IMG/VR virus record: IMGVR_UViG_3300037512_001384
Span: 6,442 to 70,441 of that record
DNA length: 64,000 bases
Reading direction: 5' to 3' (one strand)
Source of the DNA: a virus
The stretch's first letter is position 1, and each line of letters opens with the position of its first letter. This document shows, in pieces, positions 6,151 through 58,261 of this stretch. The notes under the pieces were generated by a model. It searched no databases and was not told the origin of the DNA. It saw only the letters and a list, made by a program, of their open reading frames with translations. Both the position numbers and the translations under genes were made by a program.

Positions 6151-6688
6151 TCAAGACATACTTTATAGGCATATTATATTTCTTAGAGCCATGCATTATG
6201 GTATCCTTGCGACCGTCATAACCGGTTGCTATCTCCTGTATGGCTTCATGGTCAAAGAAATACTTCTCCTGTTTTGACATCAGGAATATATATTCATGTG
6301 CCTTCGTACAGCGGTCTTTGATGCTTTCGGGCTGCGGATTCAGCTTATGCCAGATGATGTCATTTCTCAGACGGAATCCGATACGGTCTCTTAGTGCGAA
6401 AGCCGCCATCCAGGGAATACCGATAAGACTTTTTGCATTGTCATAGCTATCTCCGAGGTTCAGCCAGAGCGTTCCTTCCGGTTTAAGAACGCGAAACACT
6501 TCCGTGAATACTTCGGTGAGTCTGTCGATATACTCTTCTGGTGACTTCTCCAGACCTATCTGACCGTCAATACCGTAGTCTCGCAGATTGAAATATGGCG
6601 GTGAGGTGACACAGCAATCAACGCAGTTGTCAGGAAGGCTTTTCATTCCGGTGAGGCAGTCTTCATTGAAAACTTTGTTGATTTCCAT
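6041..6688 (-). CDS. N-terminal half of a beta-class N4/N6 DNA methyltransferase (SPPY motif IV), separated from its 3' half by inversion
   Basis: MEINKVFNEDCL..DCCVTSPPYFNLRDY..LWLNLGDSY..NDIIWHK..HEYIFLMSK. Methyltransferase similarity stops at the repeat (6163-6175). The rest of the ORF is read-through antisense to the primase-helicase gene. Confidence 0.75.
   Translation of the reverse strand: MEINKVFNEDCLTGMKSLPDNCVDCCVTSPPYFNLRDYGIDGQIGLEKSPEEYIDRLTEVFTEVFRVLKPEGTLWLNLGDSYDNAKSLIGIPWMAAFALRDRIGFRLRNDIIWHKLNPQPESIKDRCTKAHEYIFLMSKQEKYFFDHEAIQEIATGYDGRKDTIMHGSKKYNMPIKYVLIRTGYLRLSAHQRVFHYVVFPAAPLQNPIPADSAAS
6163..6175. repeat. left inverted repeat of invertible segment 1 (TTATAGGCATATT)
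   Basis: Perfect reverse complement of 6692-6704. An imperfect extension brings it to about 20 bp. Confidence 0.9.
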
Positions 6689-9292: not shown

Positions 9293-9363
9293 GGTCGTAT
9301 GGCGTAATGGTAGCGCAACAGACTTTGGTTCTGTGTGTCCCGGTTCGATTCCAGGTACGACTA
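9293..9363 (+). tRNA. tRNA-Gln (anticodon UUG)
   Basis: Manual cloverleaf: acceptor GGTCGTA/TACGACT (G1-U72), anticodon stem ACAGA/TCTGT, loop CTTTGGT, T arm CCCGG-TTCGATT-CCAGG (one C-A mismatch). No encoded CCA. Confidence 0.8.
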
Positions 9364-9374
9364 CAAATTATTTC

Positions 9375-53590: not shown

Positions 53591-55348
53591 TTAGTGTGTT
53601 GCGTTCCACCGGTTCCAGTTGTTCTCGTTCGGACGATTACCCCACTTGTCGGTATTCAGACGGTTGGGTCTTCCCTGTCCGCGACCTGTGGCTACCGAGC
53701 CTTTGGTCTTCTTTGAGACCTTACCTTTCTCCTCCTGTCCCTGCTCAATCCTGTTCTCAGCTTTGGCGACCTCAATTTGCTGGTTGGTCTCAATCTCACT
53801 GAGCTCACGCTGCATGTCTATGTTAGCGTCGTTCTGAATCTCCAGACGTTGCTCTTCAAGGAGCAGCTGGTTCATCATAGCCTCATGCTCCTCGTTGCAG
53901 ATACGCTCCCATTCGTTCGGTGTAGCATACGGGCTCTTCTCGGATGCCGTCTGTCGTGACAGGAACTTACCTACCACGGATGTGTTGAGGTTATTGGTCA
54001 GCTCGGTGTTGTTGACATGGATGTAAGGCTCAAGGTAATGACGTATGTTGGTTTTCATAAACGACAGCCTCATCTCAGCCTCGATGCCGTAACCCCATGT
54101 GAATATCTGAACCATGTCATCCACCACGCCGTCATACTCCTGTGCGTCATTCATAGCCTTCTCATAGGCGTCGGAGTACATGATCTTCAATGCCACACCC
54201 GGAGTGTCACCGGACTTGAGCTCAGGAGTCTTGACGGCGAAGGACTGCTTGTATATGGCATCCTCCACCTTATCCAGCTCGGCTTTGTAGGCGTTGGAGG
54301 CATCCTGGCGGTTGAGGAATCCAATCTCACCGTCTTCAGGAAGCAGCATTATCTTCGATGCGTATGACATATCCTTGGTGGTGATCTCCTCCGAACCCTC
54401 GCCCTTGACATACATGATAGGCAGACCGAAGTCATGGTTGCTGTGGGCGAGGTTGGAGAAGGCTACCTCATAGTTCTCGATGGACTCCTCTGAGAATGTC
54501 CAGCACGGACCGTTGTCATCACGCTTGTAAGCGACCGGGATACCGTTGAAACCATGCGGTTCTATGTACTCCAGCTTATAGCCGTCGGTGGAGAATATCT
54601 TCAGTATGAGTTGCTTCGCCTTATCGAAGATATTGGAAGGGTCGCCGTCAGCCACGAACCGGTAGTAGTAGGTGTTGTCCCATACGTCGATGTAACGCTT
54701 GGTGACGCTGCCGTCTTCCGAGTAGTTGCAGTAGGTACGTGCCAGGGTGTTGATTTTGCCGGTACGCATGTCATAATGCGGAAACAGACGGTCGCCGTTG
54801 AGGAAGCTCAGCACCTTCCATCCGAACTTACCGTTATCCATGAAGCCCACGAACGCGCCGTCACCGGTCGCCTTGACGGACTTGGCCAGCTGATACCATG
54901 CCACCTCCATGTTCTTGTTCGCCCATCCGTTACGGAAGGCGTTGAAGACGTTACGGCTCTCTTCGGTCACGGTGGTATCCGACAGCTCGAACTGCACGTC
55001 ATTACCGCACAGGTGTGTGAGGTGCTTGACGAGTATGATCTGCTGGTATGCGAAGGCGTAACGTGGTATCTCCTGGATATACCAGCGTCCGTCCTCCTCG
55101 TTCTGCTGCCATACGTCAGGGTAGAGCTCCCTGTCGTTGATGATGTGTCCTGCAGGATCCAGCTCACGCAAGAAATCCTCCTGTGTGATAATCTTACGTC
55201 TGAGGATGTCATGTGTCAGCGGAATCTCCGACGCTTCGTTCCAAACATACCCGTGGTCATAATGACCGTCGGGAAGGATACGAGTGAAAGGCTTCTTTGT
55301 CAGAAGGTCTCTCAGTTGTTTCTTGGTCTCGATGATGTTGTCTGCCAT
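53591..55348 (-). CDS. portal protein
   Basis: 585 aa, between TerL and the MuF-like gene. Basic disordered C-tail. Called by size and position. Confidence 0.6.
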   Translation of the reverse strand: MADNIIETKKQLRDLLTKKPFTRILPDGHYDHGYVWNEASEIPLTHDILRRKIITQEDFLRELDPAGHIINDRELYPDVWQQNEEDGRWYIQEIPRYAFAYQQIILVKHLTHLCGNDVQFELSDTTVTEESRNVFNAFRNGWANKNMEVAWYQLAKSVKATGDGAFVGFMDNGKFGWKVLSFLNGDRLFPHYDMRTGKINTLARTYCNYSEDGSVTKRYIDVWDNTYYYRFVADGDPSNIFDKAKQLILKIFSTDGYKLEYIEPHGFNGIPVAYKRDDNGPCWTFSEESIENYEVAFSNLAHSNHDFGLPIMYVKGEGSEEITTKDMSYASKIMLLPEDGEIGFLNRQDASNAYKAELDKVEDAIYKQSFAVKTPELKSGDTPGVALKIMYSDAYEKAMNDAQEYDGVVDDMVQIFTWGYGIEAEMRLSFMKTNIRHYLEPYIHVNNTELTNNLNTSVVGKFLSRQTASEKSPYATPNEWERICNEEHEAMMNQLLLEEQRLEIQNDANIDMQRELSEIETNQQIEVAKAENRIEQGQEEKGKVSKKTKGSVATGRGQGRPNRLNTDKWGNRPNENNWNRWNATH

Positions 55349-55359
55349 ATCTGTTGATG

Positions 55360-58107
55360 TTAATTATAGTGTGGTGACAGCTTACGCACTGTCCTTACCC
55401 GGTTTCCTTTCTGGAGCCAGTTGGGTACGGTAGCCTGCGTATGCTTGATGTCGAAAATCTCACGCATAAACAGAGCCTCGAAGAAGTCCGGTGAGTGACC
55501 TACGACGGCTTTGTTCTTCATCTGTTCCTTGTGAATAAGACACCATCCCTTATCGGCTTTTGACATATCCTGCTTGACGCATTTACGTTCAAGCTGCAGG
55601 ATGGCATATAATGTCTTGATCTCCTTTCCTATCTTGTATTTGCGCTGCAGCAGTGTCGGCTCGATGCTCCATCCGGACTGCTGTGTGCGCTCCGCGAACT
55701 TGTAAGCGCACTGTGACTTCTTGTTGTCATAGAGATGCTTGTCCTTGACGGACACAGCCTCCTGGTTGTTGAACGGTACGGCACGCGGGAACGCACCTTT
55801 GAGCACCTGTCCCATTCCGTTGAGGTCATAGGCGAAGTTCTCCTCCAGCACACCCCACTCACGCAGTTTCTCTTTCAGCATGGATGCGGTGGTGAAGGGG
55901 TCACGACGGCATACGAAGACATCGGCGACATGCCATCCTATCCACAGCCATGTGACGCAGTTGTCACCGCCGTCACCTGCTACGTCACAGGTGGCGCGAC
56001 GTATCTTGTCACCTACCATCTGTGAGTTCTTGAAGCAGGAATCGAGATGGAACGGCTGTATCATGTCATCACCCATCTTGATGATGTCCCAGTTACCGTC
56101 GAACTCACGGGCCCTGATTTCAGGAGGTTGGTTGAGCAGTGATGCTATATAACCCGGGTCGTTCTTGAGCAGCGCCTTGTTGTCCTTGAGGTTAGCCTTG
56201 ACGAAAGTGACCGATTTGACGAAGAAGGAGGTCTTGGTGTAGCCGTACTGCTCCCACTCGGGGTCCCATGCGTCATCAATCATCTCCTTACACTGCTCAT
56301 ATACCTCTTCGGGTGTGTCACCCCAGATGATGTTATCCACGCTATCATCCGGCATGTAGCAGTAACGCAGCACGCCGTCACGCTCCGGTATGGCGAACCC
56401 TTTGCGTTCCGGGTGTTTCTTACCGTCGAGATAGACGGTATCCTCCTTGCCTATCCACCAGTCCACGAACTTACGCAGCCATGACAGAGGGTCGGGGTTG
56501 CAGGTGCCGAGGATACGAGAATGGACACCGACGGTGTTACGGTTACAGGTCATCAGGAACTTGAACATCTCGAACGGCATCTGCGGCAGCTCGTCGATAC
56601 CGATATACGCGAACTGCTGTCCACGGAACTTTCTGTCGAAGTCCGCCATCGGCATGTCGTAAATGGTCAGTCCCAGCTTGGCTCCGGAACGGAAGTTCCA
56701 GGTCATATCATCCTTGGACTTGTTGTATCGTCCGAGTCCGGAGAACCAACGCTGGCTTTCGTTGATGATATTATCGAAGTCATCCTTGTTCCTTCTGAAG
56801 ATGTAACCATTAAAGTGCTTGTTCTTGATGTCATACATCGGTTCCATGAGCATTGTCACGGTATTGTGGTTGATGGTGTATGCATCGGTCAGATACAGGT
56901 GGTCACGTCCGGTGACGGTGATGCAACGGCACTGCTGCTTGGTATGATCCTTCGTTATGTACTGGATTTTCTTGGACAGCATGTTGGTGCATTGCGGGTT
57001 GGTCGGACATTCGGCGTTGACCCTGACAGTCCGGTCCGCTCCGCTGCCTTTCCTGAACAGTTCCTTGTCGTTCGGCGCCTTCATGGTGACGCGCCACCAT
57101 CCGAGGTAATTGGGTTCATCCTCTACCTGATGCACACGCGCCCATATACCCAGCGAGCGTGCGAGTTCAGCTATATCATCTATGAAATCCTTGTTCGGGA
57201 GTGTGATTATCGGACAGTTATGTCTTGTACGTCCGGAGCGTGCCATGATGCCAAGCAGGTATGACCATCTCACGGACACCGCTGCAGTCTTATACTCATG
57301 CGGTATGCGACAGGGCTCTTCCTGTCTGCAGCATGTTATCCTGCGTCTGTTTTCGTCGCTGATGCCGCGAATATAGAAGAAGCCGTCTTCTGCGTTGAGG
57401 TTGACCTTATAACCCCAAGCGCGGTATCTGACACGCATGAACTTGTCATCATCGAGGCGGATTCCCTTCTTGCCGAACTCCCATGTCCCCTTGCTGCTAA
57501 GAACGCCGAGCAGATACGGATGTATAGGCATATCGATGGCGGTCTTCTGCTCGTTCATCTCCACCTTGCCACAGAGCGGTATCTCCACATACTGTGTCTT
57601 ACCCCTACGCAGTGACATAGGGAACGGACGGTCTATGACGTAGTTGTCGAATATCTCACGTGCGGTCATCTCATGGTATATGTCACCTGCACCCACGCGA
57701 GCCCAGAACCGGTGGTTGTTCATGCATTTGAGTGTCGTGCCGTCATCGAAGTGTAGCGTGTATATCGTCTGCTCACCCTGCTCGAATATCTCACTGACCT
57801 TCTGAACGCCGTTGTAGGGCGTACATATAAGGTCGCCCACCTCCAGGTCGCCCATCCTGCGGAATCCCGAGGGTGTGGCTACCATAGTGCTGTAGGGGTT
57901 GGCTTTGCCGCCGCCCCTGTTGCCGCCGAACACCGTGATGTCCGCGACATTACCGAGTCCGAACTCCTGAGCGCCATCCTGGACGATGAAATATTTGTTT
58001 TTCTTGTCCGTTTCGGCTATCGTCCGAATATGCGGTAAAAAATCGTGACTAAAGATGTTCTTTCCATCCTTAGTACGTAACGCTGTCAAGCATGTTGAAT
58101 CCTGCAT
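55360..58107 (-). CDS. terL: terminase large subunit interrupted by an intein in the Walker A motif
   Basis: FGGNRGGGK | intein | TVTM.. restores GxxxxGKT. Downstream are IGIDE (Walker B) and LGTCNPD. ATG at 58107 is preferred over GTG at 58152. Confidence 0.85.
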   Translation of the reverse strand: MQDSTCLTALRTKDGKNIFSHDFLPHIRTIAETDKKNKYFIVQDGAQEFGLGNVADITVFGGNRGGGKANPYSTMVATPSGFRRMGDLEVGDLICTPYNGVQKVSEIFEQGEQTIYTLHFDDGTTLKCMNNHRFWARVGAGDIYHEMTAREIFDNYVIDRPFPMSLRRGKTQYVEIPLCGKVEMNEQKTAIDMPIHPYLLGVLSSKGTWEFGKKGIRLDDDKFMRVRYRAWGYKVNLNAEDGFFYIRGISDENRRRITCCRQEEPCRIPHEYKTAAVSVRWSYLLGIMARSGRTRHNCPIITLPNKDFIDDIAELARSLGIWARVHQVEDEPNYLGWWRVTMKAPNDKELFRKGSGADRTVRVNAECPTNPQCTNMLSKKIQYITKDHTKQQCRCITVTGRDHLYLTDAYTINHNTVTMLMEPMYDIKNKHFNGYIFRRNKDDFDNIINESQRWFSGLGRYNKSKDDMTWNFRSGAKLGLTIYDMPMADFDRKFRGQQFAYIGIDELPQMPFEMFKFLMTCNRNTVGVHSRILGTCNPDPLSWLRKFVDWWIGKEDTVYLDGKKHPERKGFAIPERDGVLRYCYMPDDSVDNIIWGDTPEEVYEQCKEMIDDAWDPEWEQYGYTKTSFFVKSVTFVKANLKDNKALLKNDPGYIASLLNQPPEIRAREFDGNWDIIKMGDDMIQPFHLDSCFKNSQMVGDKIRRATCDVAGDGGDNCVTWLWIGWHVADVFVCRRDPFTTASMLKEKLREWGVLEENFAYDLNGMGQVLKGAFPRAVPFNNQEAVSVKDKHLYDNKKSQCAYKFAERTQQSGWSIEPTLLQRKYKIGKEIKTLYAILQLERKCVKQDMSKADKGWCLIHKEQMKNKAVVGHSPDFFEALFMREIFDIKHTQATVPNWLQKGNRVRTVRKLSPHYN
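56863..57903 (-). mobile_element. 347-aa intein with a degenerate LAGLIDADG domain, Ala at position 1, ends HN, +1 Thr
   Basis: Block A ANPYSTMVATPSGFRRMGDL, block B LKCMNNHRFW, LAGLIDADG-like YLLGVLSSKG and YLLGIMARSG, block F/G CRCITVTGRDHLYLTDAYTINHN|T. Confidence 0.75.
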
Positions 58108-58261
58108 ATTTCTTATACATTTTTGACAAAGATATTTCAGAACAAGTGTCACATACGGTGTATTTCATTGGTAAAATGAAAGATTACCAAAATAAAAGCG
58201 CTTAGGAAAACACCAATCACTATAATTTGGCGAAAAATCTTTACAAATTATAGCAATTGGT

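Follow-up and report, generated by a model that had tools for sequence, protein, structure and literature searches.

The terminase locus and its insert

The window analysed here, a 64-kb stretch of viral DNA (positions 6,442 to 70,441 of IMG/VR record IMGVR_UViG_3300037512_001384), encodes on its minus strand a large terminase subunit (TerL) that is interrupted in its P-loop by an intein. The TerL reading frame occupies 55360..58152 (930 codons) with an in-frame upstream GTG at 58152, and the ATG at 58107 is the likely start, as the N-termini of homologues match it. Pfam Terminase_6N covers the C-terminal two thirds of the frame (E 2e-10), and the protein is 47% identical overall to the TerL of Bacteroides phage LoVEphage, the nearest deposited TerL. 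A Crassvirales (crAss-like) origin of the phage, to which contigs of ~100 kb had pointed, was considered and rejected, the nearest deposited TerL being that of LoVEphage at this level of identity. The 915-residue "TerL" is a 568-residue TerL plus an intein, with computed masses of 106.1 kDa for the precursor, 65.9 kDa for spliced TerL and 40.2 kDa for the intein (Table 1).

Table 1. Features of the interrupted TerL gene, with residue numbers of the exteins counted in TerL and those of the insert counted in the intein
Feature	Position	Strand	Description
TerL precursor gene	55360..58107	minus	915 codons + stop; basis: open reading frame list, Pfam Terminase_6N, identity to LoVEphage TerL
N-extein	57904..58107	minus	residues 1-68; ends in the first part of Walker A, GGNRGGGK
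Intein	56863..57903	minus	347 residues, 40.2 kDa, Ala1 to Asn347; in frame, between Lys and Thr of Walker A
N-terminal Hint half	57574..57903	minus	residues 1-110; block A from Ala1; block B with His64 (B:10) and Phe66 (B:12)
LAGLIDADG homing-endonuclease-like domain	57004..57573	minus	residues ~111-300; Hom_end, Foldseek matches to I-DmoI and PI-SceI
C-terminal Hint half	56863..57003	minus	residues 301-347; Cys327 (F:4), His335 (F:13), Tyr337 (F:15), Asn345 (G:5), His346, Asn347
C-extein	55360..56862	minus	begins at Thr+1, the Walker A Thr; holds the remaining ATPase domain and the nuclease domain

The full precursor, used as query, retrieved 324 proteins, the best 120 of which are 62-99% identical to the window protein, are 803-942 residues long and all carry the insert. 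These 120 were aligned with the window protein using MAFFT, and the conservation counts given below refer to this alignment (n=121). The segment G61-K68 of TerL, immediately before the insert, is invariant or nearly so in the 120 homologues. Across the junctions the protein reads ADITVFGGNRGGGK, then ANPYSTMV...(347 residues)...YTINHN, then TVTMLMEP, and removal of the insert gives GNRGGGKT, thereby restoring the Walker A motif GxxxxGK[ST]. The Lys|Thr position in the P-loop has been called a "classic" intein insertion site (PMC5050341).

Three independent tests agree on the boundaries, which are exact. Spliced TerL aligns with the intein-less LoVEphage TerL free of gaps over the junction (ADITVFGGNRGGGK-TVTMLMEP versus ADITICGGCRGGSK-TFTLLMET), with the motif GGNRGGGK-TVTMLMEP opposite GGCRGGSK-TFTLLMET. 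The Pfam model Intein_splicing, although below its threshold, reaches its last profile position at precursor residue 415, the last residue of the intein. Finally, 14 class 3 P-loop inteins from outside the window family, each with four flanking residues on either side, were made into a profile, which matches over its whole length at precursor residues 65-419 (E = 3.7e-50, for a nominal 1e6 sequences). A preliminary description of this DNA had placed a 347-residue intein at the same coordinates and had proposed a profile alignment as a check; the class 3 profile put both ends where that description had them. Its residue numbering was inconsistent, as the insert (residues 84-430) was counted from the GTG and the 915-residue length from the ATG, a harmless slip that leaves the coordinates correct.

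A two-domain intein

The insert has blocks A, B, F and G of inteins, a His at B:10, a C-terminal His-Asn and Thr at +1, and the segments named earlier as blocks A, B and F/G all align with the corresponding blocks of its relatives. Positions F:13 and F:15 were numbered as in the prototype intein (Cys320, His328, Phe330). In phmmer searches of PDB sequences the N-terminal Hint half matches the gp41-1 and Msm DnaB inteins, and Cys327 aligns with Cys118, the proven catalytic cysteine of the Mycobacterium smegmatis DnaB class 3 intein (6bs8). Among Pfam models, Hom_end matches the insert above its curated cut-off, and Hint_2 and Intein_splicing match below theirs.

The intein, together with five flanking residues at either end, was modelled confidently by AlphaFold2, with a predicted local distance difference test score (pLDDT) of 91.2 and a predicted template modelling score (pTM) of 0.90. 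The top Foldseek matches of this model in the PDB are two-domain inteins, namely PI-SceI (E 1e-11), the Thermococcus and Pyrococcus VMA inteins and PI-PfuI (E 1e-11 to 1e-8), followed by the Hint-only mini-inteins gp41-1 and class 3 MchDnaB1 and MsmDnaB1, and by the free-standing LAGLIDADG enzyme I-DmoI. The Hint fold is matched with a Foldseek probability of 1.00 to PI-SceI, gp41-1 and the DnaB inteins. The insert is a two-domain intein, with a Hint domain and a LAGLIDADG endonuclease fold.

A class 3 intein with a Phe-Cys-Asn signature

By definition, a class 3 intein starts with a non-nucleophilic residue, is followed by Thr or Ser at +1 and has Trp, Cys and Thr at positions B:12, F:4 and G:5 (the WCT triplet); the F:4 Cys is absolutely required in this class (PMC2807308). 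A tblastn search of GenBank phages with the insert gave 301 records, 225 of them with at least 80% query coverage, at ~25-27% identity. The matches lie in terminase large subunits, SNF2 helicases and DnaB-like helicases, for example in Mycobacterium phage Gaia gp2, Bacteroides phage BS-TP3, Lactobacillus phage LfeInf (where the intein is annotated), PhiPA3 and PA1C. The TerL1-e intein of Gaia has been grouped with class 3 and shown to splice (Kelley et al., PMC5050341).

For a residue-by-residue comparison the loci of Gaia, PhiPA3, BS-TP3 and LfeInf were read and aligned, in place of the Bethlehem DnaB prototype; the Bethlehem RefSeq record has only a 273-residue DnaB-like gene annotated, and its gp51 holds a different intein, in a phosphoesterase. 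Residue 1 is Ala in the window intein and mostly Ala in its relatives, some of which have Gly, Pro, Val, Met or Gln. His64 at B:10 and His346-Asn347 at G:6-G:7 correspond to His and His-Asn, Cys327 at F:4 to the block F Cys of Gaia, PhiPA3 and BS-TP3, and Thr+1 to Thr or Ser. The remaining two positions differ: B:12 is Phe66, where the relatives have Trp (Phe in LfeInf), and G:5 is Asn345, where they have Thr (Ser in LfeInf). The window intein thus shares with class 3 its Ala1, its F:4 Cys, its Thr+1 and its homology to characterised members, and departs from it at B:12 and G:5. Phe66 is present in 121 of 121 sequences, with a Trp at B:13 in 100 of them. We treat the window intein, on the basis of these alignments, as a sequence variant of class 3 in which two of the three signature residues differ.

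Departures from WCT are on record. Among 1,702 class 3 inteins the triplet is WCT in 1,685, FCV in seven, WCS in three and NCT in three, with MCT, WCC, HCT and FCS occurring once each (Hoffmann et al., PMC7891396 Table S1); by weight, deviations amount to 6.1% at B:12 and 4.6% at G:5 (PMC7891396). The MCT intein (AceL NrdHF) has been proven to follow the class 3 mechanism and still splices as a T(G:5)A mutant (PMC7891396), and in the prototype a W67F mutant splices to ~50% at 30°C and fully at 15°C (PMC2807308). Wherever Phe occupies B:12, it is paired with a residue other than Thr at G:5 (the tabulated FCV, seven times, and FCS, once; FCS in LfeInf; FCN in the window family), which hints at co-variation between the two positions.

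The Ala1, F:4 Cys and Thr+1 reported in the preliminary description all align with class 3 relatives. Two of its remarks need revision. It had regarded the penultimate His as atypical of class 3, but the relatives end in T-H-N or S-H-N, so that this His is normal; a His at C1:6 is described as conserved (PMC7891396). It had also found the mechanism of an intein with Ala1 and Thr+1 unclear, but the combination of Ala1, F:4 Cys and Thr or Ser at +1 is the one that defines class 3 (PMC2807308), and Gaia TerL1-e splices (PMC5050341).

Besides Cys327 the intein has four near-invariant cysteines, C27 (116/121), C60 (119/121), C111 (121/121) and C325 (117/121), and a C-x-C at F:2/F:4 is also common among related class 3 P-loop inteins. 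The class 3 intein of Msm DnaB has a regulatory disulfide between its catalytic Cys and a second one. Given that disulfide and the near-invariant extra cysteines, a redox or metal site is conceivable in the window intein.

Conservation and selection in the family

Ala1, His64, Phe66, Arg326, Cys327, His335, Asn345, His346, Asn347 and Thr+1 are invariant in the alignment, and the five-residue pattern A-F-C-N-T is the same in all 120 sequences that cover it. The intein is 342-354 residues long in 117 of 120 homologues; the other three were missed by the search pattern or are truncated. A search with the intein only returned 16 proteins, mostly fragments of the window TerL family. One protein of 427 residues (P0126) joins the N-terminal part of a window-type intein to an unrelated stretch and then to an HD-domain (PF01966) match, and looks like the product of a chimeric assembly or a frameshift, not like an intein that has entered another host protein.

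Contigs with the family gene are typically ~100-107 kb long and have the portal gene directly downstream. A metagenome-assembled genome from the human gut, named "uncultured Prevotella sp.", has one copy on a contig, and one fragment is labelled Prevotella corporis; the gut phages that carry the gene may infect Prevotella. Single-protein scans of GTDB genomes and of IMG/VR gave one locus each. Family members with a source name are labelled only "hypothetical protein", and their precomputed domain lists hold the terminase domain only, plus Hom_end for a few.

Selection was assessed by comparing window positions 55363-58107 with the DNA of two homologues, L007 (3001-5784) and L009 (3001-5790). 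The synonymous sites are saturated, with a proportion of synonymous differences (pS) of 0.68-0.94, which rises above the saturation level of 0.75, and a ratio of nonsynonymous to synonymous rates was not computable for most comparisons owing to this saturation; the proportion of nonsynonymous differences (pN) was therefore set against saturated pS. The C-extein has a pN of 0.08-0.13 and a mean pairwise amino acid identity of 78%, the Hint halves 0.19-0.28 and 67-69%, and the endonuclease-like region 0.33-0.39 and 55%. This last domain is three to four times less constrained than TerL, yet far from neutral. The GC content at third codon positions (GC3) is 0.67 in the intein and 0.69 in the extein, and this match in base composition fits an intein that has long been resident in TerL. 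Phages with 70-77% identical proteins have a TerL GC3 of 0.47 and 0.56, against 0.69 in the window, which points to a strong drift of base composition among related phages.

The endonuclease-like domain

In an active LAGLIDADG enzyme, each of the two helices ends in an Asp or Glu that binds metal. The window intein has the fold and both helices, which AlphaFold2 models at intein residues 129-135 and 209-223, but not the acids: helix 1, PYLLGVLSSKG, has Lys138 and helix 2, YLLGIMARSG, has Ser223 at the position of the catalytic Asp. Where the relatives read LGDGC and DTDG, the window reads LSSKG and ARSG. Across the family the first acid position is most often occupied by Thr (74), followed by Ser (20), Lys (8), Asp (8) and Asn (5), and the second by Asn (52), Lys (21), Ser (14), Gly (8) and Ala (8); acids at both positions occur in none of the 121 members. 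The domain is thus predicted to be a catalytically dead relic. The preliminary description had judged it probably inactive for want of acidic residues, a judgement that Lys138, Ser223 and the family counts support well. Even so, the selection analysis indicates that the dead domain is still under purifying selection, and it has never been deleted in the family.

Some actinophage inteins have an antisense or out-of-frame endonuclease. Here, long antisense reading frames (105-267 residues) are found at 56521-57264 (+) and 57298-57615 (+) in the intein region and at 54554-55357 (+) opposite the portal gene. Neither of the two within the intein region has a Pfam match, and no antisense or out-of-frame endonuclease was found in the intein. 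These frames probably arise as a side effect of the high GC content at third positions of codons on the coding strand.

The P-loop as a site of intein turnover

The spliced extein was searched exhaustively with HMMER against 1.84 billion cluster representatives at 50% identity. The window family forms a single cluster, and no intein-less protein above 50% identity was found among these representatives. In the clusters that follow, at 39-50% identity, empty, intein-bearing and reduced P-loops are mixed. The P-loop is empty in P0137, P0145, P0147 and LoVEphage. P0138 is a second cluster with an FCN intein and a dead endonuclease (38% identity in the intein, 49% in the extein), and P0150 and P0170 have canonical WCT inteins with an intact endonuclease at the same K|T/S site. 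Partly deleted inteins are seen in P0139 and P0193 and a mini-intein in P0160. Two residues upstream, at GG|SKS, lie inteins that start with Pro1, full-length in P0141, partly deleted in P0142 and reduced to mini-inteins in P0140, P0143 and P0144.

A neighbour-joining tree restricted to the exteins groups the window family with P0138 at 100% bootstrap support, in a clade that takes in all carriers of the FCN-type intein. This clade is most simply explained if the FCN intein with its dead endonuclease was present in the common ancestor and was inherited vertically thereafter. By this tree and the cluster search, the intein has become fixed in a clade of LoVEphage-related gut phages of ~100 kb.

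The P-loop of LoVEphage-like TerL (window site 56860-57906) is an intein hot spot with two sites, GK|T/S and GG|SKS, two residues apart. It holds at least three intein types (Ala1-FCN, Ala/Gly/Val/Met1-WCT and Pro1-WCT) and all stages of decay, from an intact endonuclease to a 139-residue mini-intein, alongside empty alleles.

Proposed splicing mechanism and alternatives

We propose that the TerL P-loop intein very probably splices by the class 3 path, as judged from homology. TerL would be translated as a 106-kDa precursor, which would be unable to bind ATP because the intein splits its P-loop. In the first step the thiol of Cys327, assisted by His64 (B:10), would attack the Lys(-1)-Ala1 bond, leaving the N-extein as a thioester-linked branch on Cys327. 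Transfer of the N-extein to the Thr+1 hydroxyl would follow and form the usual branched ester of block G, after which cyclisation of Asn347, aided by His346 and His335, would free the 40-kDa intein. An O-to-N acyl shift would finally produce ...GNRGGGK-TVTM... and an active 66-kDa TerL. With its LAGLIDADG domain dead, the element would no longer home and would persist as a vertically inherited, fixed passenger.

We infer that the intein splices from the interruption of the P-loop, from the strongly constrained exteins, from the invariance of every predicted catalytic residue and from the finding that the window has no second TerL. Several points weigh on the other side. For the window protein and the whole family alike, splicing itself and the order of its steps are deduced, and it is by alignment that Cys327 is placed between the two splice junctions. 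Two of the three signature residues differ, the triplet being Phe-Cys-Asn (FCN) instead of WCT, and FCN does not occur among the 1,702 class 3 inteins of PMC7891396 Table S1. The curated Pfam intein models remain below threshold and the NCBIfam models have no useful match to the insert. Finally, the lack of a second TerL holds for the 64-kb window, and ~36 kb of the genome lies beyond it.

One extension of the class 3 reading, which we regard as unlikely, is that the intein has been domesticated, so that the dead LAGLIDADG domain now serves the phage, for example in DNA binding or folding, and the class 3 chemistry acts as a post-translational switch that responds to redox state or metal. The idea arises from the fact that the dead domain is intact and under purifying selection in a deep clade, while sister lineages have been reduced to mini-inteins. 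If it were true, cysteine chemistry with the Phe(B:12)/Asn(G:5) pair might time the activation of the terminase in an anaerobic host.

It is very improbable that the element is a splicing-dead pseudo-intein or a permanent insertion, with TerL either working with the insert in place or being a pseudogene. An intein pseudogene is known from Arthrobacter (Arth_1007; PMC3196547), and a decayed endonuclease, sub-threshold curated intein hidden Markov models and splicing that is deduced would all suit such a reading. However, all 121 sequences keep every predicted catalytic residue although their synonymous divergence is saturated, and the GK|T split lies in a strongly conserved ATPase whose C-extein has the lowest pN of the regions compared. 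The window offers no second TerL as a substitute, and the TerL-portal module is normal and conserved in relatives.

We likewise give little credence to a class 2 (KlbA-like) path, in which Thr+1 would attack the Lys(-1)-Ala1 bond directly and Cys327 would have a merely structural role. Ala1 is a feature shared with class 2, and of the three signature residues of class 3 the window intein lacks two. Class 2 inteins use Cys at +1, however, whereas the window intein has an invariant Thr. They also lack a block F Cys (PMC2807308), which is invariant at F:4 in the window family, and the whole length of the intein is homologous to class 3 inteins, of which the MCT variant is proven to use the class 3 path.

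That the endonuclease is still active, or persists as a nickase or DNA-binding module in an intein that still homes, is hardly credible either: the retained length, the confident LAGLIDADG fold, the purifying selection against saturated pS, a net charge of +7 and the Asp kept in the first motif by eight members speak for it, but the window has Lys and Ser at the two metal-binding positions, no member has both acids, no empty allele above 50% identity was found that might serve as a homing target, and the intein co-diverges with its extein clade.

Neighbouring genes

Directly downstream of TerL lies the portal gene (53591-55348, minus strand), a homologue of which is annotated as SPP1_portal in L007 and L009. 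Divergent from TerL, the segment 58262-61015 (plus strand) encodes a 287-residue Gly-rich protein, a 220-residue protein and a 387-residue protein. A 377-residue protein of L007, at the corresponding position and in the same gene order, has a weak Phage_cap_E match, from which the 387-residue protein is likely to be the major capsid protein. The only tRNA, and the only Rfam match, in the 64-kb window is a tRNA-Gln (anticodon TTG) at 9293-9364 on the plus strand; in LoVEphage at least six tRNAs are clustered beside TerL.

Significance and comparison with known inteins

Class 3 inteins in phage terminase P-loops are known, and the window element is of a known kind in a known place. The observation reported in the preliminary description was correct and its interpretation essentially so, with all of its main claims upheld. 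What is new is the FCN signature, which is not in the list of 1,702 inteins in PMC7891396, together with the fixation of the intein in a large gut-phage clade in which we saw no intein annotation and the long retention of an endonuclease domain that is dead but constrained. The main gain is a better annotation of TerL genes. An invariant FCN across such a clade widens the known variation of WCT and strengthens the pattern of Phe at B:12 with a residue other than Thr at G:5. The family also offers a clean natural example of an intein fixed after the death of its endonuclease, with the domain intact and constrained. The P-loop of LoVEphage-like TerL should be useful for studying intein turnover, since empty, active, dead, partly deleted and mini-intein stages occur there at two adjacent sites.

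The closest known systems are the class 3 inteins in P-loops of phage ATPases, for example Gaia TerL1-e, Bethlehem DnaB, the PhiPA3 SNF2 helicase and BS-TP3 TerL. In such inteins, as in the window element, the first residue is not a nucleophile and often belongs to an A-Q/N-P start, the insertion point is GK|T/S, and the splicing positions hold a B:10 His, an F:4 Cys, an F:13 His, a C-terminal His-Asn and a Thr or Ser at +1. A LAGLIDADG domain between blocks B and F is likewise shared, and identity over the full length is 25-27%. The four full-length examples read are 341-376 residues long, similar to the 347 of the window intein. Unlike these relatives, it has FCN instead of WCT and has lost both catalytic Asp residues, which they keep in LGDGC and DTDG, and it is fixed in its clade whereas they are sporadic.

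The Msm and Mch DnaB-1 inteins (6bs8, 6rix) resemble it in Ala1, in the catalytic F:4 Cys and in their Hint halves, which match by sequence and fold; they differ in being mini-inteins without an endonuclease domain, in their canonical WCT and in their bacterial helicase host. AceL NrdHF (MCT) and the FCV and FCS variants likewise deviate from WCT and keep the F:4 Cys, but AceL NrdHF is a split intein without both C-terminal His residues, which the window intein has. The best structural matches, PI-SceI and the archaeal VMA inteins (1ef0, 7qsu, 7qst), have the same architecture of Hint and LAGLIDADG domains, but belong to class 1, with Cys1 and an Asp at F:4, and are only 12-14% identical to the window intein. 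PMC8966425, the apparent source of 7qst and 7qsu, deals with a pair of archaeal inteins, in one of which the homing-endonuclease domain is active and in the other inactive; the latter is a precedent for an intein that keeps its inactive domain.

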